Shown piece by piece: positions 5,227-64,000 of a stretch of DNA of 64,000 nt. The position numbers and the translations under genes are program-made. Below the pieces are notes generated by a model, which searched no databases, was not told where the DNA came from, and saw only the letters and a list, made by a program, of their open reading frames with translations. Position 1 is the stretch's first letter; each line of letters begins with the position of its first letter. The DNA comes from Patescibacteria group bacterium. Its GTDB lineage: Bacteria > Patescibacteriota > Minisyncoccia > Phycocordibacterales > CAIZLB01. Location of the stretch: positions 249,483 to 313,482 of the forward strand of contig JAZKJG010000001.1 of assembly GCA_040384445.1 (NCBI GenBank). The letters run 5' to 3'.

Positions 5227-5703
5227 TTACTGTATCGTATCAGGTATAAATTTTAAGGCAAGACCATTAATACAATATCGAAGTCCTGTTGGAGTTTGAG
5301 GAGCATCATTAAATACATGTCCAAGGTGGCTTTTACATTTTGCAGAAATAATCTCTGTTCTATCCCCATCTGCCCGTTCTTCTACAGAACTTGATGCAAT
5401 CGGAGCCCAGAAACTTGGCCATCCTGTTCCTGTTTCAAACTTTTGTTCTGATCTAAACACTGGTTCGTTACAGTCAGCAGTTACATATGTTCCTTTTCGT
5501 TTTTCATATAGTAGATCACTCGTAAACGGACGCTCTGTTGCACCTTCTTTAAGAACTGCATATTGTGCTGGAGTGAGTGAAGAATCTACACTTTTAACTT
5601 CTGAAGGATTTTTGTGTATTCTTGACACAATAAAACCGAGTTGAACAATAACTATGACTATAAGTATTATTTTGATGAATTTTGATTGCATATATATGTG
5701 CAT
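5227..5703 (-). CDS. msrB: Peptide methionine-(R)-S-oxide reductase MsrB with N-terminal signal anchor
   Basis: 158 aa; GTGWPSF, CxxC...CxxC zinc motifs and RYCINGLAL catalytic region; hydrophobic N-terminus implies extracytoplasmic localisation. Confidence 0.8.
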   Translation of the reverse strand: MHIYMQSKFIKIILIVIVIVQLGFIVSRIHKNPSEVKSVDSSLTPAQYAVLKEGATERPFTSDLLYEKRKGTYVTADCNEPVFRSEQKFETGTGWPSFWAPIASSSVEERADGDRTEIISAKCKSHLGHVFNDAPQTPTGLRYCINGLALKFIPDTIQ

Positions 5704-14110: not shown

Positions 14111-14806
14111 TTAATGAGGATATGTCTTTCCAGAAAGTTTTGCAATTTCTCGCATAATAGCACTCGTCACTTCTTCTAAAACAACAGGGTCCTTGTAACC
14201 ATCTTTAAGATGATCAAAATACATTGGTTCTCCAACAACTATCTCTGCAGTTTTTGAAAAATTAACTTTCTTACTTGCCTTGTTGTGAATATGATGTGTT
14301 CCTTTAATTCCAACAGGTATTACAGGTACATTATGTTGTAATGCATAGCGAGCCACACCAGTAAAAGCTTTCAACATTTCTGTATCTGAATGAGATCGTG
14401 TTCCTTCTGGGAAAATTCCAATCAAATTTTTCTTAAACAAATGTTTTTCAACTGTTGCGTGAACTTCAGATTTATCATGCGCATTCCTTTCAACTTTGAT
14501 TTGACCAGTTGAAAGCATGAGTGGTTTCCAAAGTTTATGGTGAAAAAATTTCTCCGCAGATAGGAAATGTATATTTCTTCCTGACACTGAGATCAAACAT
14601 AAGAAATCAAATATACTTTGGTGGTTTGCTGCGATTATTCCTGCCTCTTTATGCTTTTTAATATGATGAACATTCGAGTGAGATTTTACCCATATAGATT
14701 TTATAAACGGAGACATTATGGCTCGTACTGCCATATATGTATATTTAGTCAGAGTACTGTGGGATTTCATAGATATAATCATAAGCTTAATATCCATATA
14801 TTGCAA
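14111..14806 (-). CDS. plsC: 1-acyl-sn-glycerol-3-phosphate acyltransferase family (PlsC-like)
   Basis: 231 aa; HxxxxD (NHQSIFD) and FPEGTRS motifs. Confidence 0.65.
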   Translation of the reverse strand: MQYMDIKLMIISMKSHSTLTKYTYMAVRAIMSPFIKSIWVKSHSNVHHIKKHKEAGIIAANHQSIFDFLCLISVSGRNIHFLSAEKFFHHKLWKPLMLSTGQIKVERNAHDKSEVHATVEKHLFKKNLIGIFPEGTRSHSDTEMLKAFTGVARYALQHNVPVIPVGIKGTHHIHNKASKKVNFSKTAEIVVGEPMYFDHLKDGYKDPVVLEEVTSAIMREIAKLSGKTYPH

Positions 14807-25929: not shown

Positions 25930-26259
25930 ATGGTAACACTCACGACTAGTCACAAAAATCCTCGCAGAAAATTTCGGAAATTTAATCGGAAGAAAGTAGT
26001 GAAGCTACTTGAACAGGCGCCGAAGTTCTTTATTTTTCACAAGTTTGTCAGGTGTCACTTTAACGACGAAATTAGGGTTTTAAATCTTGATACTCATCTC
26101 AACCTCGGAAAATACGGCAGGTTTGCACTTGTTGCCTTTGACGGATCCTCAGCAATCATCATGCACAGAGCACGACGTCAAAAAAACGATCGATTCATTT
26201 CCATTAGGAACAACAAAAATGTTAAGATCGGACACGGCATGTTCGTTGAGGAACGGTAA
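25930..26259 (+). CDS. Hypothetical basic protein (109 aa)
   Basis: ATG at 25930 preceded by AAAGAG; Lys/Arg-rich N-terminus; no motif recognised. Confidence 0.4.
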   Translation: MVTLTTSHKNPRRKFRKFNRKKVVKLLEQAPKFFIFHKFVRCHFNDEIRVLNLDTHLNLGKYGRFALVAFDGSSAIIMHRARRQKNDRFISIRNNKNVKIGHGMFVEER

Positions 26260-26281
26260 ACATCTCCCTCGCATACCTTTC

Positions 26282-26437
26282 ATGGAAAATATTATTCAAG
26301 CCCTATTTGGAATCCTTAAAATTATTGGATGCCTTCTTACTGTTGTCGTTATTGTATGCATCATTTGCTACAAGGAAATGCCACATGTCTGGACATGCAT
26401 AACAATACTCTGGGAAGAATGGAGGAAAAAGAAGTGA
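26282..26437 (+). CDS. Possible small hydrophobic protein (51 aa), low confidence
   Basis: MENIIQALFGILKIIGCLLTVVVIVCIICYKEMPHVW...; C-terminal part of ORF 26087..26437; ends 3 nt before terminator/repeat B. Confidence 0.25.
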   Translation: MENIIQALFGILKIIGCLLTVVVIVCIICYKEMPHVWTCITILWEEWRKKK

Positions 26438-26509: not shown

Positions 26510-26532
26510 CAACCATTGACATGTGGTATTTT
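26504..26532 (+). promoter_or_regulatory. Promoter TTGACA-N17-TGgTATTTT driving the MazG-like gene
   Basis: TTGACA 26504-26509, spacer 17 nt, -10 TATTTT 26527-26532 with a TG extension. Confidence 0.5.
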
Positions 26533-26567
26533 GCAAACAGAAACAAAACCTTTACTACCCTACCCTC

Positions 26568-27287
26568 ATGACCCTTGAAGAATTCCTGTCTCACTTTGGA
26601 AAAATATACGGAAAAAACAATAGGATATTTTATTCTCCTTTAGAGCACGTTGGATTTATCTCCGCTGCCATTCGGAATGTTCAAGAAACGCTGCGCAAAA
26701 AACCTGGCAACACAAGAGCTCTTGAAGAATCAATCGGCGGTCTCATTGCTCGAATTTTTGCAATCGCAACATTCTATCGGAAATTACCATTGAACAGTGG
26801 CTTTTGTACTAAATTCCCAGCCGGAGTTTGCGGAGATTGCCAGACATCAACATGTTCTTGTGATTATCAAAATCGTCCCAAGCATTCTGGAAATAAGCCT
26901 CCTGAAGAACAGTTCGCCTGGACATTGGCACAGCATCAAGAAAACATGCGAGCAGTATATGGACAAAGCAACACCGAAAAAGGAGGCACTTCTTTCTGCT
27001 TCGAAAGACTTCATTCCGAAGCTGCAGAACTTGTCTCGATTCTAATCGGTTCCGATTACACAGGTTGCACCGCTGTTGAAATTGAAAAAGGTCTCGTGGA
27101 AGAAATTTCCGATGTTTTGGCTTGGACATTGTCTTTAGCTGTTCAACTCAATGTCGATGCACAACATGTTGCTCTCCATATGTATGGCAATGGGTGTCCT
27201 ATCTGCTCCGACAATCCATGTAGGTGTCAAAAGTTCAGAATCGATCCGAGAAATCAGATTGAAACTGCCCGGACTCAACCCGCGTAA
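26568..27287 (+). CDS. MazG-like all-alpha NTP pyrophosphohydrolase domain protein with two Cys clusters
   Basis: 239 aa from ATG 26568; HSEAAELVSILIG...EISDVLAWTLSLAVQLNVD resembles the MazG EExxE/D helix pair; CGDCQTSTCSC and CPICSDNPCRC clusters. Confidence 0.5.
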   Translation: MTLEEFLSHFGKIYGKNNRIFYSPLEHVGFISAAIRNVQETLRKKPGNTRALEESIGGLIARIFAIATFYRKLPLNSGFCTKFPAGVCGDCQTSTCSCDYQNRPKHSGNKPPEEQFAWTLAQHQENMRAVYGQSNTEKGGTSFCFERLHSEAAELVSILIGSDYTGCTAVEIEKGLVEEISDVLAWTLSLAVQLNVDAQHVALHMYGNGCPICSDNPCRCQKFRIDPRNQIETARTQPA

Positions 27288-37644: not shown

Positions 37645-37686
37645 AACTCAAAAGACCCGCAGCTCATCGCTCCGGGTCTTTCTTTA
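37645..37686. repeat. 42-nt hairpin/terminator repeat, copy 1 (aactcaaaagacccgcagctcatcgctccgggtctttcttta)
   Basis: Identical 42-mer at 38329-38370; stem agacccg/cgggtct. Confidence 0.65.
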
Positions 37687-37742
37687 TATATGCAAAATCC
37701 TCACTGCCCATATTTTGACGCAGTGAGGATATTTTTTCCACT

Positions 37743-38297
37743 TCAGATATCAGACACAAGAAACACCATTGAATTTTGTTTCAACTCTTCTTCTGGTGAA
37801 AATGGTTTTACTTGCAAAAATCCAGTAAAGAGTCCATCCCACTCCAAAGTAAAGTTTTCATCTTGAATTTTTCCAAAAGTAAAAATATGATTCAATAAAA
37901 TTTCCCTAGTTTCTTCAGGATATGCAACCAGGAGCCGAACAAATTCCAAAGGTGTTCCGAGTCTTATAGTTGGTAAATCGTTTTTAATACTCACATCAGA
38001 TATGTGCCCTATAGGCTCCCAAGTGTGTACTGTCGCCGTGTGGGCCTGAAAAGACGTGGGTGAATCTGGCTCATTTCGGACTGCATTTATAAACCGTTCT
38101 TCATAACAATCCAGAAGACATACACTACCACTGTGATAAAGACTTACCCTACTCGGTATAACAAAAAGCGTTTTTAAAGCTTCTTGGGTGAATGACGAAT
38201 TGAAACCAGCAACCTGAGGCGGAACAATAAGAGGGCTTGAAATAACATCTGTAAAGATCATAATATAAGGAAGGTGAATTGTTGTAACTCTACACAA
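37743..38297 (-). CDS. Hypothetical protein (184 aa) flanked by the identical 42-nt repeats
   Basis: No motif recognised; alternative start at 38262. Confidence 0.35.
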   Translation of the reverse strand: MCRVTTIHLPYIMIFTDVISSPLIVPPQVAGFNSSFTQEALKTLFVIPSRVSLYHSGSVCLLDCYEERFINAVRNEPDSPTSFQAHTATVHTWEPIGHISDVSIKNDLPTIRLGTPLEFVRLLVAYPEETREILLNHIFTFGKIQDENFTLEWDGLFTGFLQVKPFSPEEELKQNSMVFLVSDI

Positions 38298-38328: not shown

Positions 38329-38370
38329 TAACTCAAAAGACCCGCAGCTCATCGCTCCGGGTCTTTCTTT
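38329..38370. repeat. 42-nt hairpin/terminator repeat, copy 2; likely terminator of rplI
   Basis: Identical to 37645-37686; lies 13 nt downstream of the rplI stop on the minus strand. Confidence 0.65.
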
Positions 38371-38382
38371 ATTCTGTATTTC

Positions 38383-38808
38383 TTACTTCGCTACAACCGT
38401 AATCTTAATCTCCTTCGTCACATCCTTTACAGTAACTGAAACTGTATGCTCTCCAACTTCTTTAATAGGAGTTGAGATTGTTATATACATTGGATCTACT
38501 CCAATAACTGTACCAACTTCTTCTTTGTGCACTGATGCAAAAAGATGCCCTTGTTCGTTAGCCTTAGCTTCGATAGTAAATTCTTTTTGAGCAATTGATC
38601 CAAGCTCTTTTACAAGCTCTTCTTCTCGTAGAAGTCGTGCAGCAGACTCTACTTCTTTTAGTTTTGTATATTTCTCAACTGTCTTTGCAGTAGCAATCTC
38701 AGCTACTCGTGTTGGAATAAGACTGTTAAGTGCATATCCGTCGGCAACAGTAACAACCTCATATTTTTTTCCCACTTTGTGCAGGTCTTTAAGAAGAATG
38801 ATTTTCAT
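38383..38808 (-). CDS. rplI: 50S ribosomal protein L9
   Basis: Start taken at internal ATG (MKIILLKDLHKVGKKYEVVTVADGYALNSLIP...), which aligns to the L9 N-domain; the ORF track extends 25 codons upstream. Confidence 0.8.
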   Translation of the reverse strand: MKIILLKDLHKVGKKYEVVTVADGYALNSLIPTRVAEIATAKTVEKYTKLKEVESAARLLREEELVKELGSIAQKEFTIEAKANEQGHLFASVHKEEVGTVIGVDPMYITISTPIKEVGEHTVSVTVKDVTKEIKITVVAK

Positions 38809-38824
38809 AGATGTCCAGTATACA

Positions 38825-40093
38825 CTATTTAGCCAATATTTCAACTGCTTTCTTCTGCTGTGAGTCATTCTGCTTCTTAGCATCTTCTTCCGTGATTTTC
38901 ACTTCTATATCAGGAGTAAGACCATTTACAGAAATAGAACGACCTTCTGGAGTCAGCCATCGTGCAATAGTTACCTTAAGACCAGTTGTTGGAGTTACCT
39001 TGATATATTCCTGTACAGATCCTTTTCCAAATGTTTTCTGACCTACAAGTGTTGCAAGCTTGTAATCCTGAAGTGCACCTGCCAAAATTTCAGATGCTGA
39101 TGCAGAACCTCCATCAATAAGCACAACCACCTTCACATCTGACCCAATAGTTCCATATCCTAGACTTCGCATATATTCTGTCTCTTTCTTTTTTCCATAA
39201 TCCTGACTCACGATAATTTTTCCTTGTGGAATAAAATGACTTGCAATATCAACAGCAGAATCTAAATATCCTCCTGGATTTCCTCGTAAATCAATAATCA
39301 ACTTTTTAGCACCTGCTGCTTTAAACTCTTTCAGAGCTTGAGTAAACATACTTGCCACCTGTTCTGAGAATGAATGAATCTTTATAGTATACACTCCAGT
39401 TGCTTGATCAAAGTTTTTTGTAATTGTTGGAAGTTCAATTGTGTCTCGAAGTACCTTGATCTCTAGAGGCTGATCAATCCCTTCTCTATATATCGTAAGT
39501 GCAACCTCTGTACCTTTTTTACCTCGGATCAGATTTACCGCAGCATCAATAGCCATATCTGTTGTAATTGTTTTATCAATTTTCAAAATCTTATCCCCTG
39601 ACTTTAGGCCAGCTTTCTCAGCAGGACTTCCAGGAAGAGGAGAAATAATTGTAATTATTCCATCCTTCTTTCCAACCTCCATTCCCACACCCTCAAAACT
39701 ACCTTTGATCTCACTTTCAAACGAGCTCGCCTCAGTTGGCACAAAGAATGTTGTATATGGATCCCCTTCAGCATCTACCATACCTTTAATTGCCCCATAT
39801 AATCTTCTCTCTGCAACAGACAAAGAGTCAGATGAAGTTGTGGCTGTACTTGTTGAACCTCTATCATCATCAGAACTAAACGGATCTCTGTGAGATGTTG
39901 TTACGAATTCATTGTCTAATATTTCCCAGACTTTTGTGAATGTCTTTGTGTCAAAGCCCTCTGGGGTGTTTCTTGAAGCAGAGTTAGCAGCAATTGCTGG
40001 TGAAAAATTACCAATCAGAAAACCACCAAGAAATATCAACCCTACAATCAATATTTTTTCTAAATTCTTTGTTTTACTAGGTGTTGTTTCCAT
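38825..40093 (-). CDS. ctpA: Carboxyl-terminal processing protease (S41) with PDZ domain
   Basis: 422 aa; N-terminal TM, PDZ (GSPAEKAGLKSGDKILKID), S41 signature DLRGNPGGYL and catalytic Ser/Lys region. Confidence 0.85.
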   Translation of the reverse strand: METTPSKTKNLEKILIVGLIFLGGFLIGNFSPAIAANSASRNTPEGFDTKTFTKVWEILDNEFVTTSHRDPFSSDDDRGSTSTATTSSDSLSVAERRLYGAIKGMVDAEGDPYTTFFVPTEASSFESEIKGSFEGVGMEVGKKDGIITIISPLPGSPAEKAGLKSGDKILKIDKTITTDMAIDAAVNLIRGKKGTEVALTIYREGIDQPLEIKVLRDTIELPTITKNFDQATGVYTIKIHSFSEQVASMFTQALKEFKAAGAKKLIIDLRGNPGGYLDSAVDIASHFIPQGKIIVSQDYGKKKETEYMRSLGYGTIGSDVKVVVLIDGGSASASEILAGALQDYKLATLVGQKTFGKGSVQEYIKVTPTTGLKVTIARWLTPEGRSISVNGLTPDIEVKITEEDAKKQNDSQQKKAVEILAK

Positions 40094-40153: not shown

Positions 40154-40690
40154 ATGGCACAATATACACCACGTCCAACAACACCTAGAACAAATATTAA
40201 CTATCATATTCGGGCGCCCGAATTGCGACTTATTGATGAAAATGGAGAAAACATTGGCGTTGTAAGTAACGCAGAAGCTCAGAAGTTGGCTCAAACAGCA
40301 GGACTTGACCTTATTGAGATATCCCCAAATGCTAACCCTCCGGTTGCAAAAATCATGGATTATGGTAGATTTCAATATGACGAGAACAAAAAGCAGAAAG
40401 CCTCAAAAGCTACTGCAAAAGTTGTCGAAGTGAAAAATATTCAGGTAAAGATTGGTACAGGTGAAGCAGACCTTGCCCTTAAGGCAAAAAAAGCTTCAGA
40501 ATGGCTCGCAGATGGTCAGCAGGTACGAGTAGAATTATTCGTGTCAGGACGATCAAAGTTTTTAAAGGATGACTTTTTAAATGAGAGACTACAACGGTAC
40601 CTTAATCTTATCTCTGTTGATTTCAAGATCACAGTACCTCTTAAGCGAGGACCTAAAGGACCAGCACTTGTTATTGAAAAAAAGAAGTAG
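40154..40690 (+). CDS. infC: Translation initiation factor IF-3
   Basis: 178 aa; IRAPELRLIDENGENIGVVS...LDLIEISPNANPPVAKIMDYG; starts the infC-rpmI-rplT operon. Confidence 0.85.
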   Translation: MAQYTPRPTTPRTNINYHIRAPELRLIDENGENIGVVSNAEAQKLAQTAGLDLIEISPNANPPVAKIMDYGRFQYDENKKQKASKATAKVVEVKNIQVKIGTGEADLALKAKKASEWLADGQQVRVELFVSGRSKFLKDDFLNERLQRYLNLISVDFKITVPLKRGPKGPALVIEKKK

Positions 40691-40815
40691 GCTGTTTATC
40701 ACTTTTGACAACTAAAAGATCCGTCGAAAAGGCACTTGAAGTGAGAACATATGTTCTCCGCCTCGAGACTTATAAATAAGTACTTCCTTAACGGAAGTGA
40801 AATAAAATAAAAATT

Positions 40816-42262: not shown

Positions 42263-42622
42263 TTATCTCACGTAGAATCTCACAAGTAGTCCAAACAACA
42301 GCAAAGTCATTGCAAGTAACATGATCGTAGATATATATCGCTCTTTTACAATTGCAAATATTGAACCAAACAAAAACACAGTAGGAATAATAAAATGATG
42401 TACACCGGCCACACACGCATCTGTACACAGCAGTAATATTATAAACGGATATATACTTCCAACACACACAACAACTATTCCAACCCAACTCAGCACAGTA
42501 GTGAGTGTTTCAAATCTCTCATTTGCTGGTGTAAAATTTACCATGCGGAGGATGTGAGATTCGAACTCACGGAACCATTTCTGGCTCGACAGTTTAGTAA
42601 ACTGTTGATTTAAACCACTCAT
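42263..42622 (-). CDS. Membrane protein (119 aa), hypothetical
   Basis: 2-3 TM helices. Confidence 0.35.
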   Translation of the reverse strand: MSGLNQQFTKLSSQKWFREFESHILRMVNFTPANERFETLTTVLSWVGIVVVCVGSIYPFIILLLCTDACVAGVHHFIIPTVFLFGSIFAIVKERYISTIMLLAMTLLLFGLLVRFYVR

Positions 42623-42665
42623 CCAATCCTCCTTTCTTATAGGGATAATACCCTACAAGTTTATG

Positions 42666-47571: not shown

Positions 47572-48138
47572 TTAATATTTCCGTATAACTCCTTTTACAA
47601 TCGCCACAATCTGGAATGATTCAGTTGGATAAATATCCTTAAAATCTTTATTTGCAGGTCGTAAGAAAATAGTGTCACCTTTTTTCTTGAAATATTTCAT
47701 AGTGAATCCTCCGTCAACTTCAGCGATCACTATTTCCCCATCTTTCGCATCTGACTTTTTCTCAACAATCACATAATCTCCTTCCTTGATACCTTCATCA
47801 ATCATAGAGTCACCTTTTACCTCAAGAATGTAACTGTTCTCTTTGTGTGGCATCAAGTACTGATCTATATCAATCGTGTCTAACAAATCTTCCTCGGCAA
47901 GTGAAGGTAAACCGGCTTCAACATATCCAAGGAAAGGAACTTCATCACTCATGAACGCTGGTGTAATCTTTCCTTTCGCATCTTTAAGAATTACCCCAAG
48001 CTCAACAAGCTTATTAATAAGCTTGTAGACTGCGTTCTTAGATTTAAAACCAGTAAGCGACATGATCTCGGCATAACCGGGCATACGCTTATTGTTTTCA
48101 TAAAATGAGAGTATCTTTTTTTTGTAGGTGTCTATCAT
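47572..48138 (-). CDS. lexA: LexA repressor
   Basis: 188 aa; N-terminal wHTH; cleavage site VEAGLPS (Ala-Gly); S24 peptidase Ser (GDSM) and Lys. Confidence 0.85.
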   Translation of the reverse strand: MIDTYKKKILSFYENNKRMPGYAEIMSLTGFKSKNAVYKLINKLVELGVILKDAKGKITPAFMSDEVPFLGYVEAGLPSLAEEDLLDTIDIDQYLMPHKENSYILEVKGDSMIDEGIKEGDYVIVEKKSDAKDGEIVIAEVDGGFTMKYFKKKGDTIFLRPANKDFKDIYPTESFQIVAIVKGVIRKY

Positions 48139-48150
48139 CTTGTATATTGA

Positions 48151-48366
48151 TTATAGCAAGAAAGATGCCATTGCGTGAGATAATCTCATAGTCCAAGATT
48201 CTCGTTTTACATCACCTCGAATTGCTTGAGTTAAATGTGAGATAAGAAACTTATGTCTCTTTGACTCTTTTTTATACTCTAGCCCTTGAATAATTTTCAG
48301 ATCAATTTGTTCGTTGATCTTCTCTAATTCAGTATGTATTGTTGTAATTAATTTTTGTTTACTCAT
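48151..48366 (-). CDS. Small helical protein (71 aa), first gene of the lexA operon
   Basis: 12-nt gap to the lexA start; its promoter carries the LexA box. Confidence 0.4.
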   Translation of the reverse strand: MSKQKLITTIHTELEKINEQIDLKIIQGLEYKKESKRHKFLISHLTQAIRGDVKRESWTMRLSHAMASFLL

Positions 48367-48367
48367 A

Positions 48368-48401
48368 TTTATAGTATAGTGAACTACGGTTCACCTGTCA
48401 A
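48368..48401 (-). promoter_or_regulatory. SOS promoter: TTGACA-N17-TATACT with a Cheo-type LexA box GTGAACcgtaGTTCAC inside the spacer
   Basis: Plus-strand palindrome gtgaactacggttcac at 48379-48394; -35 ttgaca (plus tgtcaa 48396-48401); -10 tatact (plus agtata 48373-48378); 6 nt before the ATG. Confidence 0.55.
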
Positions 48402-55816: not shown

Positions 55817-55908
55817 AACTCCCAACACCCACCAAGGTCACACTTGTGTGGGTTGTTTTTATATCACACCACAACATTTCAAAAACTTCTCCTGTATACT
55901 CTCTAGAT

Positions 55909-56541
55909 ATGACAAACATCACAAAAGCATTGCATTGGCGCTATGCAACAAAAAAATTTGATCTATCTAAAAAGATTTCTCCTGAGACACTTACAGATCT
56001 TAAAGAAAGTATCAGATTAGCACCTTCATCGTACGGACTACAACCATATACAATTATTGATGTTTCAATTCCAGAAATTAGAGAAAAATTAAAAGATGCT
56101 GCATACGGACAAACACAGCTCACAGATGCGTCACATCTTTTTGTGTTTGCTGTCCCTACAGATATGAATGAAGCTCATGCTGATGAGTTTATTAGTGCCC
56201 ATGCAACTATTCGCAATGTACCAGTTGAATCTCTTGCAGGATATGCAGGTATGATTAAAGATAATATCGCATCGAAAACAACTGAACAGAAAATTATATG
56301 GGCGGAAAAGCAGGCATATATTGCTCTTGGATTTTTACTTGAAACTGCAGCACTGCTTGAAGTGGATGCTGCTCCTATGGAAGGTTTTGAAGCAGCGAAA
56401 TTTGATGAGATTCTCGGATTAAAAGCAAAGAATCTGACCACTGCAGTTATCTGCCCCATTGGATACCGCGCACACGATGATGAATATGCAAATCAACCAA
56501 AGGTACGAAAAACTGAGAGTGAATTGTTTTTGAGTCTATAA
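55909..56541 (+). CDS. NAD(P)H nitroreductase family protein
   Basis: Start at internal ATG (MTNITKALHWRYATKKF...); nitroreductase fold motifs. Confidence 0.7.
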   Translation: MTNITKALHWRYATKKFDLSKKISPETLTDLKESIRLAPSSYGLQPYTIIDVSIPEIREKLKDAAYGQTQLTDASHLFVFAVPTDMNEAHADEFISAHATIRNVPVESLAGYAGMIKDNIASKTTEQKIIWAEKQAYIALGFLLETAALLEVDAAPMEGFEAAKFDEILGLKAKNLTTAVICPIGYRAHDDEYANQPKVRKTESELFLSL

Positions 56542-57876
56542 TTTTACCTCCATCAACTCCTCCCACACTGTCGTAAACCTCGGACTCATAAGATTACGCT
56601 TCATGCCCCAGCCTGAAGCGTTTTTCTTTGCAGAATTAATTCTCTTCAACTTATCAGGAGTACCCTGTGATGCCAACACAAGAGAATGTTGTCCATACTT
56701 TTTATTTATCCTATCAAGAGCATCCATCACTTCGTTTTTATCTGTATTCATAAAATCAAACAACGAATTCACTTGTGACGATTCAGGATTCAAATCATTA
56801 AACACAACTCCCGCTTTTACATATTGAAACAGCTCTCCATTATTCGCATATTTTTTAAAACATTTTTTAAATAAATTAAACGCAACTCTGTTTAAAATAA
56901 ATGTATCGTTTGTAGCTCGTACTAAGTTAGCTGATGCAGTCCCTTGATACCTAAGCTCCGCATGACGGCCAGTTGAAATATATACCGTAATTCTCGAGCA
57001 GATTAATTTTTCTTGCCGTAACTTTTCTGCCCCTCTTCCAATGTGTGTTGATACTGCTTGGAGTATCAATTTTGGATCAGTTACTTTTTGACCGAACATT
57101 CGACTCCGAATTAAACTCTTTCTCTGCTCACCTACAAGATCGAGAAATATACACGGAATTCCTTTAAGCTCTAGACATGTTCGCTCTAACACTACGTTAT
57201 ACTTTTTCCGCATTGCTAAAGGTTCAGCATTCATCAAATCTCGTGCCGTCAACAATCCAACATCTTGTAGTCTTCTTCCCCACGCTCGTCCAACACCCCA
57301 CACATCAGTGATACTTAAATTTTCTATAAACGTTGCTTTATCCTCATGCTCCCAAAAACATACACATGGTATCTTTTTCGCTTTCAATAATTTCTTCGCA
57401 TATTCACTTCCAACTTTGGCAAGTGTTTTTGTTTCAGCAATAGAAATTCGAACTGGAATACCAGTACCCTTAAGAACCTCTCTGTACATAGTCTCCGCAA
57501 GATTTTGTAAACGTATTCGCTCATCTGCAATATTATCTTCATCAGTATTTAAATAAATAAAAGCCTCATCAATAGAACACTGTTCAACCTCATCGCTAAA
57601 TCGTGAGATCACCTGCATTACTCTTCTACTCATATCTGCATACAAACAATAGTTAGAGGAAAATACTGAAACCTTAAATTCCTCAAGTGTTTTCTTTACT
57701 TGATAAAACGGTGTACCTACCATCACACCGAGAGCTTTTACTTCTGGAGTAAGTGATACGACGGCCCCATCATTGTTCGACAATACGCATATTGGTTTAT
57801 CTTTTAAATCAGGCCGAAATGCCCGCTCGCATGAACAGTAAAAAGATGAGCAATCGATGAGTGCAAAGAGTTTCAT
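56536..57876 (-). CDS. umuC: Y-family translesion DNA polymerase (UmuC-like)
   Basis: 446 aa; MKLFALIDCSSFYCSCERAF... N-terminus typical of UmuC/ImpB; 4-nt overlap with the upstream umuD. Confidence 0.8.
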   Translation of the reverse strand: MKLFALIDCSSFYCSCERAFRPDLKDKPICVLSNNDGAVVSLTPEVKALGVMVGTPFYQVKKTLEEFKVSVFSSNYCLYADMSRRVMQVISRFSDEVEQCSIDEAFIYLNTDEDNIADERIRLQNLAETMYREVLKGTGIPVRISIAETKTLAKVGSEYAKKLLKAKKIPCVCFWEHEDKATFIENLSITDVWGVGRAWGRRLQDVGLLTARDLMNAEPLAMRKKYNVVLERTCLELKGIPCIFLDLVGEQRKSLIRSRMFGQKVTDPKLILQAVSTHIGRGAEKLRQEKLICSRITVYISTGRHAELRYQGTASANLVRATNDTFILNRVAFNLFKKCFKKYANNGELFQYVKAGVVFNDLNPESSQVNSLFDFMNTDKNEVMDALDRINKKYGQHSLVLASQGTPDKLKRINSAKKNASGWGMKRNLMSPRFTTVWEELMEVKL

Positions 57877-58271
57877 TTTCGAAGTATTCGAGCAAAACCT
57901 GTAACCACTCCCCAGATCTGCACATCTTGTTCACTCTCAGGGATGATGTCAGGAAATTCTTCGTTCGACGCTTCGAAGATAATGCAGCTTCCTTTTTTTC
58001 TAAATGTTTTAACCGTAAATTCACTATCAATTACCGCAATTACAATATCTCCGTCACGAGCATCCAAATCTCTGCGCACATGTAAAATATCACCTGGCAT
58101 AATGCCAGAATTTTTCATCGACATTCCAACAGCCCTCACGTAAAAAGATGTTGCTTCATCAACTTGAAACAAATCATTTATATCTATATTTTTTTCCAAA
58201 TAGTCATCTGCTTGAGATGGAAATCCTGCCTGAACTTGAGTTGTAAAAAATGGGATTGTTTTCGCGAGCAT
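57873..58271 (-). CDS. umuD: UmuD-like S24 self-cleaving protein (no HTH)
   Basis: 132 aa; aligns to E. coli UmuD (VQAGFPSQADDY...GMSM...GDIVIA...EFTVK); Ser and Lys catalytic residues present. Confidence 0.75.
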   Translation of the reverse strand: MLAKTIPFFTTQVQAGFPSQADDYLEKNIDINDLFQVDEATSFYVRAVGMSMKNSGIMPGDILHVRRDLDARDGDIVIAVIDSEFTVKTFRKKGSCIIFEASNEEFPDIIPESEQDVQIWGVVTGFARILRK

Positions 58272-58277
58272 GGTGTA

Positions 58278-58306
58278 AGTGTACCACGGTTCACCACTTT
58301 ACTACT
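58278..58306 (-). promoter_or_regulatory. Putative SOS operator upstream of umuD: GTGAACcgtgGTAC plus shared 18-mer AGTAGTAAAGTGGTGAAC
   Basis: Plus gtaccacggttcac at 58281-58294 is a Cheo-like box with one mismatch; 18-mer gttcaccactttactact at 58289-58306 is identical to 61331-61348. Confidence 0.4.
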
Positions 58307-58341
58307 GTAGAGATTTGTTTGGTTTTAATTGCAAACTACAC

Positions 58342-61278
58342 CTACAACCCCAAAGCCTCCTTTGTCTTCTCTCCAACCACACCCCACCCTGTGGTTATTG
58401 GAGTTCCAGAGCAGATAATATTCTTGTCACATTGATATTTCTTGACTGCATTCTCTGTCTCGATACCGAAGTATGTTGTTTCGGTTTGTGCAGAGGCTGG
58501 GACTTTGAGAGATGATCCATAGGGTGAGAAGTATCCCAGAGATCGAAGTTTTGTTCTCATGAGCTTGACGTTTTGATTGGAGTCACCAAGTTTGAGTGTA
58601 GAACCAGATGATGTGATGGATGATGGAGCACGAGAGTTAGACAGCTTGTTTATAAAGGCACGAGTGATGAACCCAAAGTAGCCTTGTGATGGCGTAATCT
58701 TGTAAAATCTTTGGAATTTAATGAGAGCAGCACGAGTTGCTGGACCAAAGTAGGTTGATTCTTTAGTTGGTGATCCGTTTCCAGTTTGAGCAACAACAAA
58801 ACCATGAGTATTCAGAAATTGTTGGAGTTTTTTCACATCATTCTGTGTCATACCTAGTTTTAAGTCGCGAGTGAAGGTGTATGAAGGAGATTGAGTTGTG
58901 GTAGAAGATGATGAGACGTTCATCGCAATCAAAGACGGTGTTCCTGTTGTTGTGGCAGTCTGTATGGTCACAGCAGCTGGAGCAACATATGATGACGATC
59001 CACCACCTGAAGTTACTGAAGAGACAGGTGTTGTAACAACAGGTGTAGTTGATGTTGTGGCTACAGTAGTTGTTGCTGGAGTAGTCACAGTTACTGCTGC
59101 TGTTGTGAAAGTTCTTTCTGTTGAAGTTGAGATATTACCTGCTGCGTCGCTTGATACGACAACAAAATAGTATGTGGTTACAGGAGCAAGATCAGTGAGC
59201 GTACGTGAGTGTTGTGATGTATATGTTTGAGATGATGAGGTTGTTGGATATAAAGTAGAAGTGGTTCCATAGGACACACGGGAGGTTGCACTTTCGTTTG
59301 TGTTCCATGTGACGGTTGCAGTTGCATCCGTGGTTGTTGAGGAGATATTGGTTAGGTTTGGAGAAGTAAGATCAGCACTAGGGGGTGCGCTATTAAAATA
59401 TCGATATCCCGCAGGTATAGCTTGATAATTTAAAACTGGATTATACGGATCAAATGGTGGCCATGCTAATGAACCAAAATACTCTGGCTTTGATGTTCTA
59501 AAAAGTGAATCTGGAAGAGCAACAGCTGTTGCTTCATTAGGATAAATGCCCAATCCTCTTCGGTAGTTTGCAAGGAGTAATGTTGTTGATGCAACATCGA
59601 GATCGAGTTCTTGAAATCCAGATGAACCTGGCCAGATGAGAAGCACGGAATCGAGTGGTGGCAGAACACCAGCAAATGCAGATGTATCGACATCTACAAC
59701 ATTTCCATTAATAGCAGTTACAAGCACTGTTTTGCTGAGGCTACCGTAATACACTATTAGTGCACCGCCTTGTGCAACCGTACCACTCGATAATGTGATT
59801 TGCCCTACAGTATCTGTAGTTCTTGCAGTTAATATTCCGGCAGTTGTAGGGGTTCCATCAGGATTTAGGTCTGCCCACCAATCTCCTACGCTTGGTTGCG
59901 CAGTACCTGACCATGCACCATTACCAATGTTTGGCTGACCATATGAATCACAGTTTCCAGTTGATGCAGCATTTCCAAAAATATTACCTATGACTGAGAA
60001 GTTTCGAGAGAATCGTTTCAAACTCATACAATACGTTTGCGTTTGAACCTCCGATCGATTTGATGCTGACAGACCAGCTGCTGTTAACCAGTTACGATAC
60101 ACGGTTGTTTCAGATTCTCCACCAAAGTACCCATCAGACATAAGGTTATGTGCAATGTTACCTTCAAAAAGATTGAATGTGTTGTGTGGGGCATGATTTG
60201 TATCAATACCAATTATTCCGGCTGCATTGTTAACAAAGTTATATGCAAACACATTACCTGACGATCCACCAAAATATTCAACATTTGGGAATGCCTCAAC
60301 AAAAATATTGTCTTCAAACAAACAGCCAGATATTGATGACGTAAGTAGCCCTGATCCATTACTTCCTGAATGATTAAGTTCACCAACATAACCTCCTCGC
60401 ATTTCACAATTCAATGAGTCTGAGAAATATACAGTGTAATTGGACATGTGTATTAACTTAACGTTTTTGATCCAACTATTATCTGTTTCGGAAAACCAAA
60501 TACCAAAAGCAACACTACCATTCTCTCCATCAGCAGTTAACTCCTCAACCCCCATGCCTTCTCCACGATAACCTGAGTATGTTACGTCAGCCCCTTCAGT
60601 TGTATAGTCATCATACAGTGCTGGAAAGAATGAGAGGGTTGAGCCGGTTTTTGCAGTGATTCGTACCATTTGAATTCTCATATGATCAAAACCTGATGTA
60701 CTGACAACTGGTAACGTAGGGTCGTTGTGTGCAGCAATTTTAATTACATCACCAACAGCATACGGAGATGTATCACTGACTGAAATTTGAGTACTGCCAC
60801 GTGTTAGTCCACTATTAATAGTGACGTATGGTTGATAACTTGCTTGTGATCCACCGTACATACAAACACTGGACCTACAATCAAGTATTGTGACGTCCAT
60901 ACCAGCACCTCGTACGGTAATAAAATCTCTGCTTGCACTAAGATTAAGAGCTAAATTTAATCTCCATGTACCAGCTGGAATATATACATAGGTATGTGGC
61001 AGCGCAGAATCAATTGCCGCCTGTATGAGTGGAGCAGCATTTGTTGAACCGTCCTTATACTCTGCTGCAGCATTTACAAGATCTGTACAAGCAGCAGTAT
61101 CACACTGAGTCCTATTAGTAGGAATACCTCCAACCACACCAACATTTACACCTGGTGTCCAATCAATTATATGATTGTCTGGAATAAGGCTTGGAGCAGG
61201 GTTTGCATCAATATTAAGTGTAAAATATCCTAAACCAAGAATAAATAGAAATAAATACGTGAGATGCGCTTTTTTCAT
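58342..61278 (-). CDS. Large secreted protein: right-handed beta-helix (pectate-lyase-like) + FN3-like domain + Thr/Val-rich linker + two C-terminal peptidoglycan-binding (PG_binding_1-like) repeats
   Basis: 978 aa; signal peptide; many NxxG/GxxS beta-helix rungs; TVTWNTNESATSRVSYGT...YYFVVVSSDAAGN (FN3-like); two LKLG...V..LQ..L...G repeats. Confidence 0.6.
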   Translation of the reverse strand: MKKAHLTYLFLFILGLGYFTLNIDANPAPSLIPDNHIIDWTPGVNVGVVGGIPTNRTQCDTAACTDLVNAAAEYKDGSTNAAPLIQAAIDSALPHTYVYIPAGTWRLNLALNLSASRDFITVRGAGMDVTILDCRSSVCMYGGSQASYQPYVTINSGLTRGSTQISVSDTSPYAVGDVIKIAAHNDPTLPVVSTSGFDHMRIQMVRITAKTGSTLSFFPALYDDYTTEGADVTYSGYRGEGMGVEELTADGENGSVAFGIWFSETDNSWIKNVKLIHMSNYTVYFSDSLNCEMRGGYVGELNHSGSNGSGLLTSSISGCLFEDNIFVEAFPNVEYFGGSSGNVFAYNFVNNAAGIIGIDTNHAPHNTFNLFEGNIAHNLMSDGYFGGESETTVYRNWLTAAGLSASNRSEVQTQTYCMSLKRFSRNFSVIGNIFGNAASTGNCDSYGQPNIGNGAWSGTAQPSVGDWWADLNPDGTPTTAGILTARTTDTVGQITLSSGTVAQGGALIVYYGSLSKTVLVTAINGNVVDVDTSAFAGVLPPLDSVLLIWPGSSGFQELDLDVASTTLLLANYRRGLGIYPNEATAVALPDSLFRTSKPEYFGSLAWPPFDPYNPVLNYQAIPAGYRYFNSAPPSADLTSPNLTNISSTTTDATATVTWNTNESATSRVSYGTTSTLYPTTSSSQTYTSQHSRTLTDLAPVTTYYFVVVSSDAAGNISTSTERTFTTAAVTVTTPATTTVATTSTTPVVTTPVSSVTSGGGSSSYVAPAAVTIQTATTTGTPSLIAMNVSSSSTTTQSPSYTFTRDLKLGMTQNDVKKLQQFLNTHGFVVAQTGNGSPTKESTYFGPATRAALIKFQRFYKITPSQGYFGFITRAFINKLSNSRAPSSITSSGSTLKLGDSNQNVKLMRTKLRSLGYFSPYGSSLKVPASAQTETTYFGIETENAVKKYQCDKNIICSGTPITTGWGVVGEKTKEALGL

Positions 61279-61325
61279 ATTGGAAATATTTGTAGCTTTA
61301 TTTTACCACGCCTTACATAGGAAAC

Positions 61326-61348
61326 AAATCGTTCACCACTTTACTACT
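61326..61348 (-). promoter_or_regulatory. Second copy of the 18-mer with a GAAC half-site upstream of the 978-aa gene; TTGTTT-N16-TAAAAT promoter adjacent
   Basis: gttcaccactttactact at 61331-61348; minus strand reads AGTAGTAAAGTGGTGAACgatTTGTTTc...TAAAAT. Confidence 0.35.
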
Positions 61349-62261
61349 CCTTATACTTCTGATCTATGTAGTGATATTTCACAAGGTCATGCATCCATGC
61401 ACACATTTCTTTAAACTTGCCTGTGTAGAGTACAGGACATCGTCGAATGACAAGAGAAGGGTCTTTTGCTTTTGGAGACGCGGCAGTATATTCATGTGCT
61501 TCTTTTATAAACCCTGGAGAAATTTTCAGCATTGGCCCAGTCTCATTGTATTCAATAATAAATTCTTCAGGAATCATTTTTGCAACAGGATCTTCAAAGT
61601 CTTCTTTCACACCTTCAGGAAATTCAAGAAGTTTATACGCGATCGAGATCGAAGGTGCTTGATTATTATTCATAAGTTGAGTCATGAGTGTTTGGAAGGA
61701 TGAATCCTGAAGCATATGTTCATACTCTTCTTCACTTGGTTCTAAACCTGTTACATTTTTAAACACTTTAGGTGCAACCTCAGCAAATCTTCCGTAGAGT
61801 AAAACCAAATCTGTAAATGAAGGAAATCCTAATCCTTTTCCCGCATTTCTATTCATATTCAAAAACGTAAACCTCATCAAGATTTGCTCTTCCCTATCTA
61901 ATTCTCCTCCGGCCATCATTTTAGCAGAAGTCTCATATGCCTTATCCCACATTGCTTGCTGATGCACACGTGCAAGCTCAATATATTTTTTTTCAAAATT
62001 AATCCAAAATTCTTCATCTAGTGGAATTTTTTCTCCCAACATTTCCTCTTCATTCATCCCCATAATCCCTTCCCATTCTTTTTCTATAATATGTCCTGCA
62101 ATAGCAAATGATTCATGTGTTAGTCCAGGCTCTTGAACTTCCCTAAATATATCAACATCTCCTTCTCCTTTTTTATATTCCACATACTGCCTAAAAGCAG
62201 TGTTGTCTATTGGTAGATTTGCGAGTCGTGCAAGTGTTTTCGGTTGTTCTGGTTTTTCCAT
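61344..62261 (-). CDS. Hypothetical acidic cytoplasmic protein (305 aa)
   Basis: No motif recognised; its stop codon lies inside the shared 18-mer. Confidence 0.4.
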   Translation of the reverse strand: MEKPEQPKTLARLANLPIDNTAFRQYVEYKKGEGDVDIFREVQEPGLTHESFAIAGHIIEKEWEGIMGMNEEEMLGEKIPLDEEFWINFEKKYIELARVHQQAMWDKAYETSAKMMAGGELDREEQILMRFTFLNMNRNAGKGLGFPSFTDLVLLYGRFAEVAPKVFKNVTGLEPSEEEYEHMLQDSSFQTLMTQLMNNNQAPSISIAYKLLEFPEGVKEDFEDPVAKMIPEEFIIEYNETGPMLKISPGFIKEAHEYTAASPKAKDPSLVIRRCPVLYTGKFKEMCAWMHDLVKYHYIDQKYKE

Positions 62262-62324: not shown

Positions 62325-64000
62325 TTAAATAGAAATATCAACCCCTTTTTGACCAATCACATTTCCATTCTTATCTTTTGCAACAAAGTTAATATTGTAT
62401 GGTCCATGACCTTTCCAATTCCAGTTTGTGAGATCAACTATTGCTTCCTTATGTGTACCTGCGTCATACATGTCATTATATCTATCTCCATCCACTTGCC
62501 AAAACATCACATAGTCAGATAACGATAATCCTGTCATATATGCTTTAAAAAATTGGACACCTGTTACATTTCCAGAAGGAGACATAATAGTCAGAGCTGG
62601 TGGAGCAACTGTGATTCCTGAAGTAACCGTTACACTACCTGCATTATCAACCCAGAGTTTATTTGTTGCCCATCCATTTGAGAATATACCAACTTTAACA
62701 GTGTAGGTACCAACTTTTTGCGGAGTAAATGTTATAGAATACTGCTTCGATTCACCTGTACCAAAAGTTTGGTTCTCAAACACATTTTGTGCAACTTTTT
62801 CACCAAATGAATTATACACCTCAATGTCTGCTAAAATATCAGAGACTGAACTTGCACTTCGGATCAAAGCATTGACTGTTACGGCCTGGGATACAGTACT
62901 TGTTGTAGAAGCAACGTTCACTATATACCCTTCAGCAGGAACAGGAGTATTTTCCACAACTGCTTTAACTGTAAATTGTTGCGCAACATCCTGCCACAGA
63001 AAATTCTTGGTCCAGTTGTAATTAAATACTCCTACTTTTACTTTATAATTTCCAGTTTGTGTAGGTGTCCAAGTTGTTGTAAATGATTTTGTTCCAAGTA
63101 TAGTTTGATTTTCATAAAACTTCTGAAAAACCTTTCTATCACTACTATCATAAATTTCTACATCAACAACAATATTACTTGCATTAGTTCCATTTGTTGA
63201 AATCTTTGTATCTACATTCACAGGAGTATTTACAAACAAATTTCCTGGAGGAACAGACGTAATTGCACTGAACACATGAGCGGTGGAACTTGCAGACAAA
63301 GAAATTGGAAATGTAGTGACAGTAGTAGTTCCAAACCACTTCTTCATTACAGGCTCTGCAAGTTTGTTTTGTGGAGTATAGTCTGGATCATTCGCTCCTC
63401 CTGCATCTGGCTTCGCATCCCAATTCCATACATGAATTCCATCTATATAACTTTTATCATTCCAGAAAGAAAATAAGGCTTCGTATAAATTTGCTTGAGC
63501 CTGTTGATTTAATCCATCAGTATGATGGTAATTTCCAGGATCAATATGAGTTCCGTTTGTACTTCTATATCCAACCTCAGTAAATACGATTGGTCTATTT
63601 ACCTTCTGCTGGAACGGTTTAATATCATACTCTTCAATTTGTGCCCAGTAATTTCTAAAATTCTCAACTGATGTTTCTGCATAATTTCCTCCCAGTGGAT
63701 AATACGCATCAATCCCAACCACATCTACGGCGTCCCAAAATGCAATTCTGTTTTTCTCATCTGCGAGTCCTGATCCCCAATTCGCAGCATACACAATTTT
63801 ACCAGTGTAAATTTTTCTCACTTCGGCAATAAGCGCTCTCCATGCGGGCGTATTTTGTACGTTGTGATCATGAGCAGTAAGTGCGATTAATTCAGTTCCA
63901 ATTATAAACTGCTCCGCACCTTGTGCTTGCGCTATTGCTGCATATCTTTTTATAAATGCACCATAATTCTCAAACCAGAGTGTCCTGTTTGCTGGATCTA
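62325..64000 (-). CDS. Secreted glycoside-hydrolase-like protein (TIM-barrel, clan GH-A-like) with three tandem Ig-like domains; 5' end beyond the window
   Basis: Frame stays open to position 64000 (..FIIGTELIALT..VFTEVGY.. resemble GH-A acid/base and nucleophile strands); three ~95-aa repeats (VVDVEIYDS..YKVKVGVF; ILADIEVYNS..YTVKVGIF). Confidence 0.5.
   Translation of the reverse strand, partial: DPANRTLWFENYGAFIKRYAAIAQAQGAEQFIIGTELIALTAHDHNVQNTPAWRALIAEVRKIYTGKIVYAANWGSGLADEKNRIAFWDAVDVVGIDAYYPLGGNYAETSVENFRNYWAQIEEYDIKPFQQKVNRPIVFTEVGYRSTNGTHIDPGNYHHTDGLNQQAQANLYEALFSFWNDKSYIDGIHVWNWDAKPDAGGANDPDYTPQNKLAEPVMKKWFGTTTVTTFPISLSASSTAHVFSAITSVPPGNLFVNTPVNVDTKISTNGTNASNIVVDVEIYDSSDRKVFQKFYENQTILGTKSFTTTWTPTQTGNYKVKVGVFNYNWTKNFLWQDVAQQFTVKAVVENTPVPAEGYIVNVASTTSTVSQAVTVNALIRSASSVSDILADIEVYNSFGEKVAQNVFENQTFGTGESKQYSITFTPQKVGTYTVKVGIFSNGWATNKLWVDNAGSVTVTSGITVAPPALTIMSPSGNVTGVQFFKAYMTGLSLSDYVMFWQVDGDRYNDMYDAGTHKEAIVDLTNWNWKGHGPYNINFVAKDKNGNVIGQKGVDISI

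Follow-up and report, generated by a model that had tools for sequence, protein, structure and literature searches.

Two minus-strand genes of a Patescibacteria genome, umuD and a gene for a 978-amino-acid (978-aa) surface protein with a beta-helix and peptidoglycan-binding modules, are each preceded by the same 18 nt, which on the gene strand end in GTGAAC, the left half-site of a LexA operator. Does this repeat place both genes in one SOS regulon, as the original prediction proposed, or did it arise in another way? We examined this question in a 64-kb stretch of a contig from a metagenome-assembled genome (MAG), referred to here as the window (G+C content 37.7%), and compared the locus with its relatives. 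With a probability of roughly 0.7, the 18-mers are a structural duplication, a recombination scar that stacks two alternative contexts of the umuD operator. The umuDC operon carries what appears to be a genuine and conserved predicted LexA operator, with orthologous sites in six relatives, whereas SOS control of the beta-helix gene is not supported by the sequence evidence.

The repeated 18-mer and the LexA operators

The 18-mer (GTTCACCACTTTACTACT; AGTAGTAAAGTGGTGAAC on the gene strand) is present exactly twice in the window, which was the scope of our copy search in this genome, and no third match occurs there even when three mismatches are allowed, with shuffled sequences giving an expectation of 0.04. 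Both the number of copies and their location 5' of minus-strand genes, umuD and the 978-aa open reading frame (ORF), had been correctly recognized (Table 1). Copy 1 lies 18 nt 5' of the umuD ATG and copy 2 lies 53 nt 5' of the ATG of the 978-aa ORF. The two are direct repeats with sharp edges, identity extending 0 nt on either side, and the 3,024-bp segment between them consists almost entirely of the 978-aa gene. The GTGAAC hexamer is uninformative by itself, occurring 22 times in the window against 33 expected. Nor is the 18-mer a dispersed element: searches for the exact sequence gave eight matches among JGI metagenome contigs and a single one among viral contigs. All nine stand in unrelated sequence, with neither the second operator half found at copy 1 nor the GATTTG junction found at copy 2.

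At umuD, the half-site is completed to GTGAAC-CGTG-GTACAC, an operator that lies 7 nt 5' of the start codon and overlaps a -10-like TACACT hexamer. The lexA operon provides the reference for this arrangement. Its promoter reads TTGACA-GGTGAACCGTAGTTCAC-TATACT-ATAAAT-ATG, with the LexA dyad inside the 17-nt spacer and the TATACT -10 hexamer 6 nt before the start codon, and the same architecture is found in the relative L007 (promoter region 14140-14393), whose LexA is 96% identical. Hence lexA is predicted to be autoregulated by its own perfect dyad; the short ORF that precedes it in the operon has no match to a Pfam family. To rank candidate sites, we built a position weight matrix (PWM) from eight LexA sites, leaving out the umuD site of the window, and scored 127,966 positions. 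The umuD site ranked first in the window (30.5 bits) and the lexA site second (27.9 bits). The window contains 23 sites within three mismatches of the dyad, a count at chance level, and only the lexA operator (no mismatches) and the umuD operator (one mismatch) appear to be credible LexA sites.

Orthologous umuD promoters, retrieved via UmuC, UmuD and the 305-aa protein whose gene lies 5' of copy 2, carry GGTGAAC-YRTG-GTACACT in L001, L003, L006, L007 and L008, each with TACACT 6 nt before the umuD start codon, while L004 has the variant GTGAAC-GTTT-GTTCACT. With a single mismatch, the top PWM rank and retention in all six relatives, the LexA box originally proposed for umuDC holds up well. 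Because TACACT is conserved in the relatives and by analogy with the lexA promoter, this hexamer, preceded by TGg, may represent the -10 element of a leaderless umuDC transcript that is occluded by LexA; the lexA operon and umuDC both apparently lack a leader. Further upstream, the part of the promoter that corresponds to copy 1 is conserved as (A)GTGGTGAAC in L001, L006 and L008, and beyond it the orthologous promoters diverge (AGTAGTAA, AACAGTAA and AATAGTCC). The operator pattern GTGGTGAACYRTGGTACACT returned no matches from the JGI metagenomes.

These operators resemble the Gram-positive, Cheo-box type of LexA operator (GAAC-N4-GTTC), in that a GAAC-N4-GT(A/T)C dyad, to which copy 1 contributes one half, lies in the promoter of an operon for a translesion polymerase. 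They differ from it in having a longer local consensus, GGTGAAC-N4-GTWCACT, in the conserved GTAC variant at umuD, which doubles as part of a -10-like hexamer, and in the seemingly leaderless arrangement of both operons, with 6 nt from hexamer to start codon. Copy 2 fails the dyad definition. The SOS network in Patescibacteria is reportedly described in a 2017 article by Sanchez-Osuna, Barbe and Erill in Environ Microbiol, which is cited in PMC8565304 and PMC7739468.

One further perfect palindrome in the window, GAGAAC-ATAT-GTTCTC at 40743-40758, fits GAAC-N4-GTTC and lies between infC (40154-40690) and rpmI/rplT. We rejected it as a LexA site on the grounds that its flanking bases differ from those at lexA and umuD and that it is not among the top PWM scores. 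It is possibly part of a regulatory leader of the infC-rpmI-rplT operon.

Table 1. Features of the umuDC and lexA loci (window coordinates)
Feature	Coordinates	Strand	Remarks
lexA	47572-48138	-	Peptidase_S24 and N-terminal HTH-like match
71-aa ORF 5' of lexA	48151-48366	-	conserved; 87% identical in L007
LexA operator of the lexA operon	48379-48394	-	perfect GTGAAC-CGTA-GTTCAC; reference site
umuC	56536-57876	-	446 aa; IMS, IMS_C, DUF4113
umuD	57873-58271	-	132 aa; Peptidase_S24; NCBI name of identical protein: DNA polymerase V autoproteolytic subunit
-10-like TACACT	58278-58283	-	preceded by TGg; overlaps right half of operator; 6 nt before umuD start codon
LexA operator of umuDC (predicted)	58279-58294	-	GTGAAC-CGTG-GTACAC; one mismatch to GTGAAC-N4-GTTCAC dyad
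18-mer copy 1	58289-58306	-	last 6 nt are left half-site of umuDC LexA operator
Spacer, 978-aa stop codon to copy 1	58307-58341	-	35 nt; aligns at fixed register with homologous sequence 5' of umuD in L006/L008
Right arm of 9-bp inverted repeat	58312-58320	.	AAACAAATC on gene strand
978-aa gene	58342-61278	-	N-terminal signal/anchor, beta-helix, FN3-like, Thr/Ser-rich linker, two PG_binding_1
Upstream region of 978-aa gene	61279-61330	-	own putative promoter; novel junction at 61331/61330
18-mer copy 2	61331-61348	-	orphan LexA half-site; PWM 1.1 bits
305-aa gene	61344-62261	-	lineage-specific; two protein clusters known

Copy 2 as a candidate regulatory site

The candidate site at copy 2 reads GTGAAC-GATT-TGTTTC (GGTGAACGATTTGTTTCC), and its right half matches the dyad at only 2 of 6 bases. 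Its PWM score of 1.1 bits (rank 93 of 127,966) comes wholly from the left half and rises to 11.4 bits if a 5-nt spacer is permitted; the site is absent from the 23 window sites within three mismatches of the dyad. As LexA binds its dyad operators in dimeric form, a lone duplicated half-site is no evidence for regulation. Comparison with homologues of the 978-aa gene points the same way as far as it goes: L018, from another Patescibacteria genome and the only homologue with DNA available (39% identity), has neither a LexA box nor a half-site upstream, and no close ortholog exists, the nearest homologue being 62% identical. The proposed membership of the 978-aa gene in the SOS regulon is thus not borne out.

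The sequence that extends beyond the half-site, AGTAGTAAAGTG, had been taken as a hint of an additional factor. This too found no support, since at copy 2 the extension is the 3' end of the 305-aa gene together with its stop codons: copy 2 contains the last 2 nt of the final sense codon of that gene, followed by the TAG stop (61344-61346) and an in-frame TAA (61341-61343). The accompanying suggestion of a duplicated promoter module came near the truth, the 18-mer being a duplicated piece of the umuD promoter/operator region, and comparison with relatives offers a structural duplication at the edge of an insertion/deletion as the reason why both copies are identical. The 978-aa gene is probably driven by its own putative promoter, beside a LexA half-site that is likely non-functional. 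This promoter would comprise an extended -10 element, TGGTAAAAT (61300-61308), and a weak -35-like TTGTTT (61322-61327), an assignment that we infer and that falls below the threshold of a consensus promoter scan. The region from the novel junction to the start codon (61279-61330) has no homology to any relative compared.

It could still be argued that copy 2 is functional, either as a LexA half-site or as the site of another factor that recognizes AGTAGTAAAGTGGTGAAC, and that the 978-aa gene is co-regulated with umuDC. The 18/18 identity would be surprising if the duplication were as old as the split between the window and L006, and purifying selection on both copies could explain it. Furthermore, the -35-like hexamer of the 978-aa gene directly adjoins the half-site, and the genes are co-directional with no terminator-like hairpins between them, so that coupled transcription is possible. 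However, the second half-site is missing, as the scores above indicate, and a dimeric LexA would require it. Outside (A)GTGGTGAAC, the 18-mer varies from one orthologous umuD promoter to another, and at copy 2 this variable part consists of the last coding bases and the stops of the 305-aa gene; the one homologue examined, L018, has no box. A structural explanation of the duplication is sufficient, and we regard a function for copy 2 as quite improbable.

Ancestry of the flanks and origin of the duplication

Relatives show the locus in other states. In L001 and L002, contigs from two independent samples, a 306-aa gene directly abuts the umuD operator, with one 18-mer copy and no 978-aa gene; from the end of the 306-aa gene to umuD, L001 reads ...AAA CAG TAA AGTGGTGAAC CATG GTACAC TAACCGT GTG. 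A version of the window lacking the 3,024-bp segment and one of the repeats aligns gap-free with L001 across the junction. The TAG stop of the window aligns with the CAG codon of L001 and the same TAA follows in both, which accounts for the lengths of 305 and 306 aa. None of the six relatives has a 978-like gene 5' of umuD or a second GGTGAAC copy nearby. The contigs of L001/L002, L006, L007 and L008 trace to the sequencing runs SRR26556851/SRR26556766, SRR9661224, SRR13704943 and SRR22388338, respectively. Next to the umuD operator, L001 has its 306-aa gene and L003 an Mrr-like gene; the genes that occupy this place in L006/L008 (177/160 aa) and in L007 (a nitroreductase) are divergently oriented. 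On the 3' side of umuC, the window retains partial synteny with L007 (AHSA1, DUF4199, lexA and ribonucleotide reductase genes). Because the upstream genes vary by lineage while the downstream synteny is partly kept, the umuD operator marks a boundary between conserved and variable gene content.

The two copies have left flanks that appear to differ in ancestry. Over 35 nt compared at fixed register, the flank of copy 2 matches L001 at 28/35 positions (P ~1e-5) and L006/L008 at 10/35. In contrast, the flank of copy 1 matches L006 at 22/35 (P ~1.8e-5, both by shuffling and against 270,000 35-mers) and L008 at 17/35 (P 0.006), and it shows no similarity to L001 (13/35) or the copy-2 flank (12/35). 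Copy 2 thus looks L001-like on its left and copy 1 looks L006/L008-like. A corresponding mosaic is present in umuD itself. Among the informative sites that distinguish L001 from L006, 14 of the first 15 (alignment columns 21-59, from just 3' of the right operator half to about umuD codon 11) are L006-like in the window, whereas after column 59 there are 53 L001-like and 39 L006-like sites; the switch at column 59/60 gives a maximum chi-square of 13.4 (permutation P 0.004). The junction GTGAAC/GATTTG (61331/61330) has no homology in any relative compared.

Taken together with the unoccupied locus in L001/L002, these flanks lead us to favor a scar in which two contexts of the umuD operator stand in tandem: the 305-aa gene followed by the 18-mer, as in L001/L002, and the 978-aa gene with its 35-nt spacer followed by the 18-mer, with an upstream region of the L006/L008 type. 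Copy 1 would be in its native place, as the upstream part of the umuDC promoter/operator in which GTGAAC pairs with GTACAC 4 nt downstream, and copy 2 would be a second copy of the same 18 nt at the far end of the 3-kb segment with the 978-aa gene. The two contexts would lose homology at the left edge of the repeat, and its right edge would be the one novel junction. Most likely, a single illegitimate join linked the two contexts, carried either by two chromosomes or by a chromosome and related DNA that had entered the cell; a homologous exchange within umuD, at about alignment column 59/60, would have resolved the other end. L001 may represent either the state before this event or a later deletion between the repeats. 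A single-copy haplotype of this genome, if present, would read 305-aa gene-18-mer-CGTGGTACAC.

Such an event resembles homology-facilitated illegitimate recombination in naturally transformable bacteria (de Vries & Wackernagel 2002; Prudhomme et al. 2002), as summarized in PMC6382021. Here too, one end of the tract is homologous (the switch inside umuD) and the other non-homologous (GTGAAC/GATTTG). Unlike in that process, the join would lie 18 nt inside the shared region, and therefore recipient sequence would have been duplicated rather than deleted. The duplication includes the left half-site, so the umuDC operator stays complete; umuDC would keep an intact operator 3' of the inserted gene, and the 305-aa gene would end inside copy 2. 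All three units (the 305-aa gene, the 978-aa gene and umuDC) run in the same direction, and neither of the two intergenic regions that separate them holds a terminator-like hairpin, so that transcription could continue into umuDC, as it could already in L001.

Several points weigh against this interpretation. The copies agree at 18/18 positions, even at position 2, where their G contrasts with the A of L001, L006 and L008, while the L001-type and L006-type 18-mers differ at 3/18. Identity between copies drawn from diverged contexts would need a very close donor or luck, and duplication of one template, for example as a target-site duplication, would explain it more simply. A 9-bp inverted repeat near both copies is also unaccounted for: its left arm (GATTTGTTT, 61322-61330) lies 0 nt from copy 2 and its right arm (AAACAAATC) 5 nt from copy 1, with P ~6.5e-4 against random 20-mer pairs in a post hoc test. 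Moreover, LexA may bind weakly at the half-site beside the -35-like hexamer. Finally, the comparison includes only five close relatives on short contigs.

The first two of these points would be met by a mobile non-autonomous cassette (GATTTGTTT...AAACAAATC-TCTAC, 3,024 bp, with the 978-aa gene) that inserted between the 305-aa gene and the operator and left an 18-nt target-site duplication from a staggered cut. The insertion would perhaps be site-specific for the umuD operator, and the upstream region of L006/L008 would then be the right end of related elements. The direct repeats are exact and sharp, the site is empty in L001/L002 with a gap-free alignment across the junction, the left arm of the terminal inverted repeat is flush with the repeat, and both copies share the position-2 G without parallel in L001, L006 or L008, as if one template had been copied. 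The conserved core of the L006 homology (AAACAAA) moreover coincides with the right arm. In these respects the locus recalls transposon- or casposon-like target-site duplications: exact direct repeats enclose a discrete segment, a relative has the site unoccupied, and short inverted repeats lie close to both ends.

However, neither the segment nor its surroundings encode a transposase or integrase: no such domain was found in the segment, in 30 scanned ORFs of the window or in the neighbor genes of the relatives. Neither the ends nor the element as a whole recurs in the window, the loci or the collections scanned. An 18-bp duplication is unusually long for one made by a transposase. The right arm stands 5 nt away from the repeat, and the codon usage of the 978-aa gene is native. 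In addition, the 35 nt at the right end share homology, in the same register, with sequence 5' of umuD in relatives, which obliges this explanation to make the extra assumption of site-specific elements in L006/L008, and the L006-like tract that runs into umuD is left unexplained. A simple foreign cassette with target-site duplication was the first model that we considered, and we downgraded it on account of the L006/L008 homology of the copy-1 flank and the native codon usage. We now consider a cassette unlikely. The stronger form of the proposal, in which the segment is a cassette specific for the left half-site of the umuDC operator, bounded by 9-bp terminal inverted repeats and an 18-bp duplication, with sister remnants in L006/L008, seems to us more doubtful still. 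If it were true, the umuDC operator would be a recurrent landing pad for surface-protein genes in this clade, and the orphan half-site by the cassette promoter might confer weak SOS responsiveness. An integrase-mediated att duplication, as at the edges of an island or prophage, was rejected: no recombinase was found among the scanned ORFs, and the sole tRNA of the window lies at 42545-42632. Rfam detected no other family in the window.

The remaining alternative, chance recurrence or an assembly artefact, is very improbable, the least likely of the explanations considered here. The window does come from a MAG, and related populations with alternative contexts evidently exist. Yet an exact 18-mer repeat would be expected in 64 kb only about 0.04 times even with three mismatches allowed, and the copies lie exactly at the boundaries of the insertion/deletion relative to L001. 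Identity over 18 nt is shorter than the k-mers of usual assemblers, and a chimeric join would switch contexts within shared sequence rather than duplicate it.

Several further observations concern the surrounding sequence. Across 57200-58295, comparison of the window with L001, L006 and L008 gives alternating runs of L001-like and L006-like informative sites, a pattern that suggests repeated recombination between these lineages; UmuD is closest to L006 (89% aa identity) and the 5' end of umuC to L001 (96% aa identity). A nitroreductase ortholog, 72% identical, lies 3' of and convergent with umuC in the window (55846-56541), and 5' of and divergent from umuD in L007 (9291-9923), so that umuDC and its operator have switched sides relative to this gene. 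In L003, a 10-N scaffold gap (5529-5538) lies 4 nt 5' of the umuD operator and truncates the Mrr/Zn-ribbon gene; the assembly of this MAG thus breaks precisely at the same variable boundary. The sequence GGGTTGTAG, shared by L003 before the gap and by the end of the 978-aa ORF, was set aside as a chance match, being in-frame coding sequence of the Mrr/Zn-ribbon gene in L003.

The beta-helix protein and its neighborhood

The 978-aa product had been described as a beta-helix protein with FN3 and peptidoglycan-binding domains, and this description is confirmed at the level of predicted fold. Pfam identified two PG_binding_1 domains and an FN3-like domain, with no match for the beta-helix part alone. 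We obtained an AlphaFold2 model from an alignment of 40 sequences, with a predicted local distance difference test score (pLDDT) of 81. In this model, a right-handed beta-helix spans about residues 30-630, mostly at pLDDT >90, and is followed by a beta-sandwich (about 640-725), a disordered Thr/Ser linker and two helical peptidoglycan-binding modules. Foldseek relates the helix to phage tailspike and capsule depolymerases, GH28/GH110 enzymes and alginate epimerases at about 10-13% identity (E 1e-14 to 1e-5; 1e-14 to 1e-12 for the tailspikes and depolymerases). The modeled fold of residues ~30-630 would accordingly be shared with phage tailspike/capsule depolymerase and GH28-type beta-helix enzymes such as PDB 4ru4, 7w1c, 4y9v and 2uve. 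In contrast to these proteins, to which it is only distantly similar in sequence, the 978-aa protein has no phage context and adds the fusion to FN3-like and PG_binding_1 domains seen in many Patescibacteria surface proteins.

Neither the beta-helix part nor the 305-aa protein has sequence relatives in the PDB, and the 978-aa protein gave no tblastn match in 50,697 GenBank phage records. No phage or tailocin genes surround the 978-aa gene, whose neighbors are umuDC, a hypothetical gene and a GH113-like gene. Homologues, which carry PF12708/PF13229 beta-helix domains, occur commonly in Patescibacteria and in further phyla, the best non-self match covering 66% of the query at 62% identity. The gene looks native by its codon usage, which is typical of the window (third-position G+C content 0.27; relative synonymous codon usage distance 4.4, mid-range).

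The 305-aa protein has a single relative among 5.8 billion proteins (P0002, 84% identical; from L001/L002). A scan of genome collections with it found no relative, the same scan with UmuC found only L003-L005, and exact-protein look-ups with the 305-aa protein, UmuD and P0001 returned no records. Proteins identical to the 305-aa, 978-aa and UmuD sequences belong to a Patescibacteria group bacterium MAG at NCBI, where they are encoded on a 314-kb contig. Upstream of umuDC lie many genes for carbohydrate-active and PG_binding_1 proteins of secreted or surface type, and these vary from relative to relative: a GH113-like protein with Ig-like repeats in the window (62325-63821), a Big_5 and PG_binding_1 protein in L001 (2-1402) and a Lectin_C, Big_5 and PG_binding_1 protein in L007 (4525-6879). 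This suggests a variable surface-protein region 5' of umuDC.

Other repeats occur elsewhere in the window. A perfect 43-nt direct repeat with sharp edges (37645-37687 and 38330-38372) holds a terminator-like hairpin, AAAGACCCG...CGGGTCTTT. One copy stands 3' of rplI (38383-38883, minus strand) and the other follows a 642-nt segment whose only long ORF encodes 184 aa (37743-38297) without a Pfam match; the pair looks like a second repeat-bounded insertion of a single segment in this genome. Two further intergenic pairs, each 91% identical, comprise a 33-nt repeat that ends in TTGACA (25809-25841/26477-26509) and a 46-nt repeat that is a hairpin terminator (26439-26484/27285-27330). Both pairs are repeated terminator/promoter modules around the ORFs at 26087-26437 and 26523-27287.

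The umuDC LexA box and the short direct-repeat scar are both of already known kinds. Their value here lies in part in the removal of a false lead, since an SOS-controlled, tailspike-like peptidoglycan-binding enzyme in an uncultured episymbiont would have been notable. A usable result is the predicted LexA operator of lexA and umuDC in this lineage, GGTGAAC-N4-GTWCACT, which overlaps -10-like hexamers and is supported by comparison with relatives. Under the scar interpretation, the locus also offers a worked case of how gene content changes in small genomes, with two contexts stacked and an 18-bp scar left behind. For the prediction of regulons it counsels caution, as exact repeats that hold operator half-sites may be scars of rearrangement.

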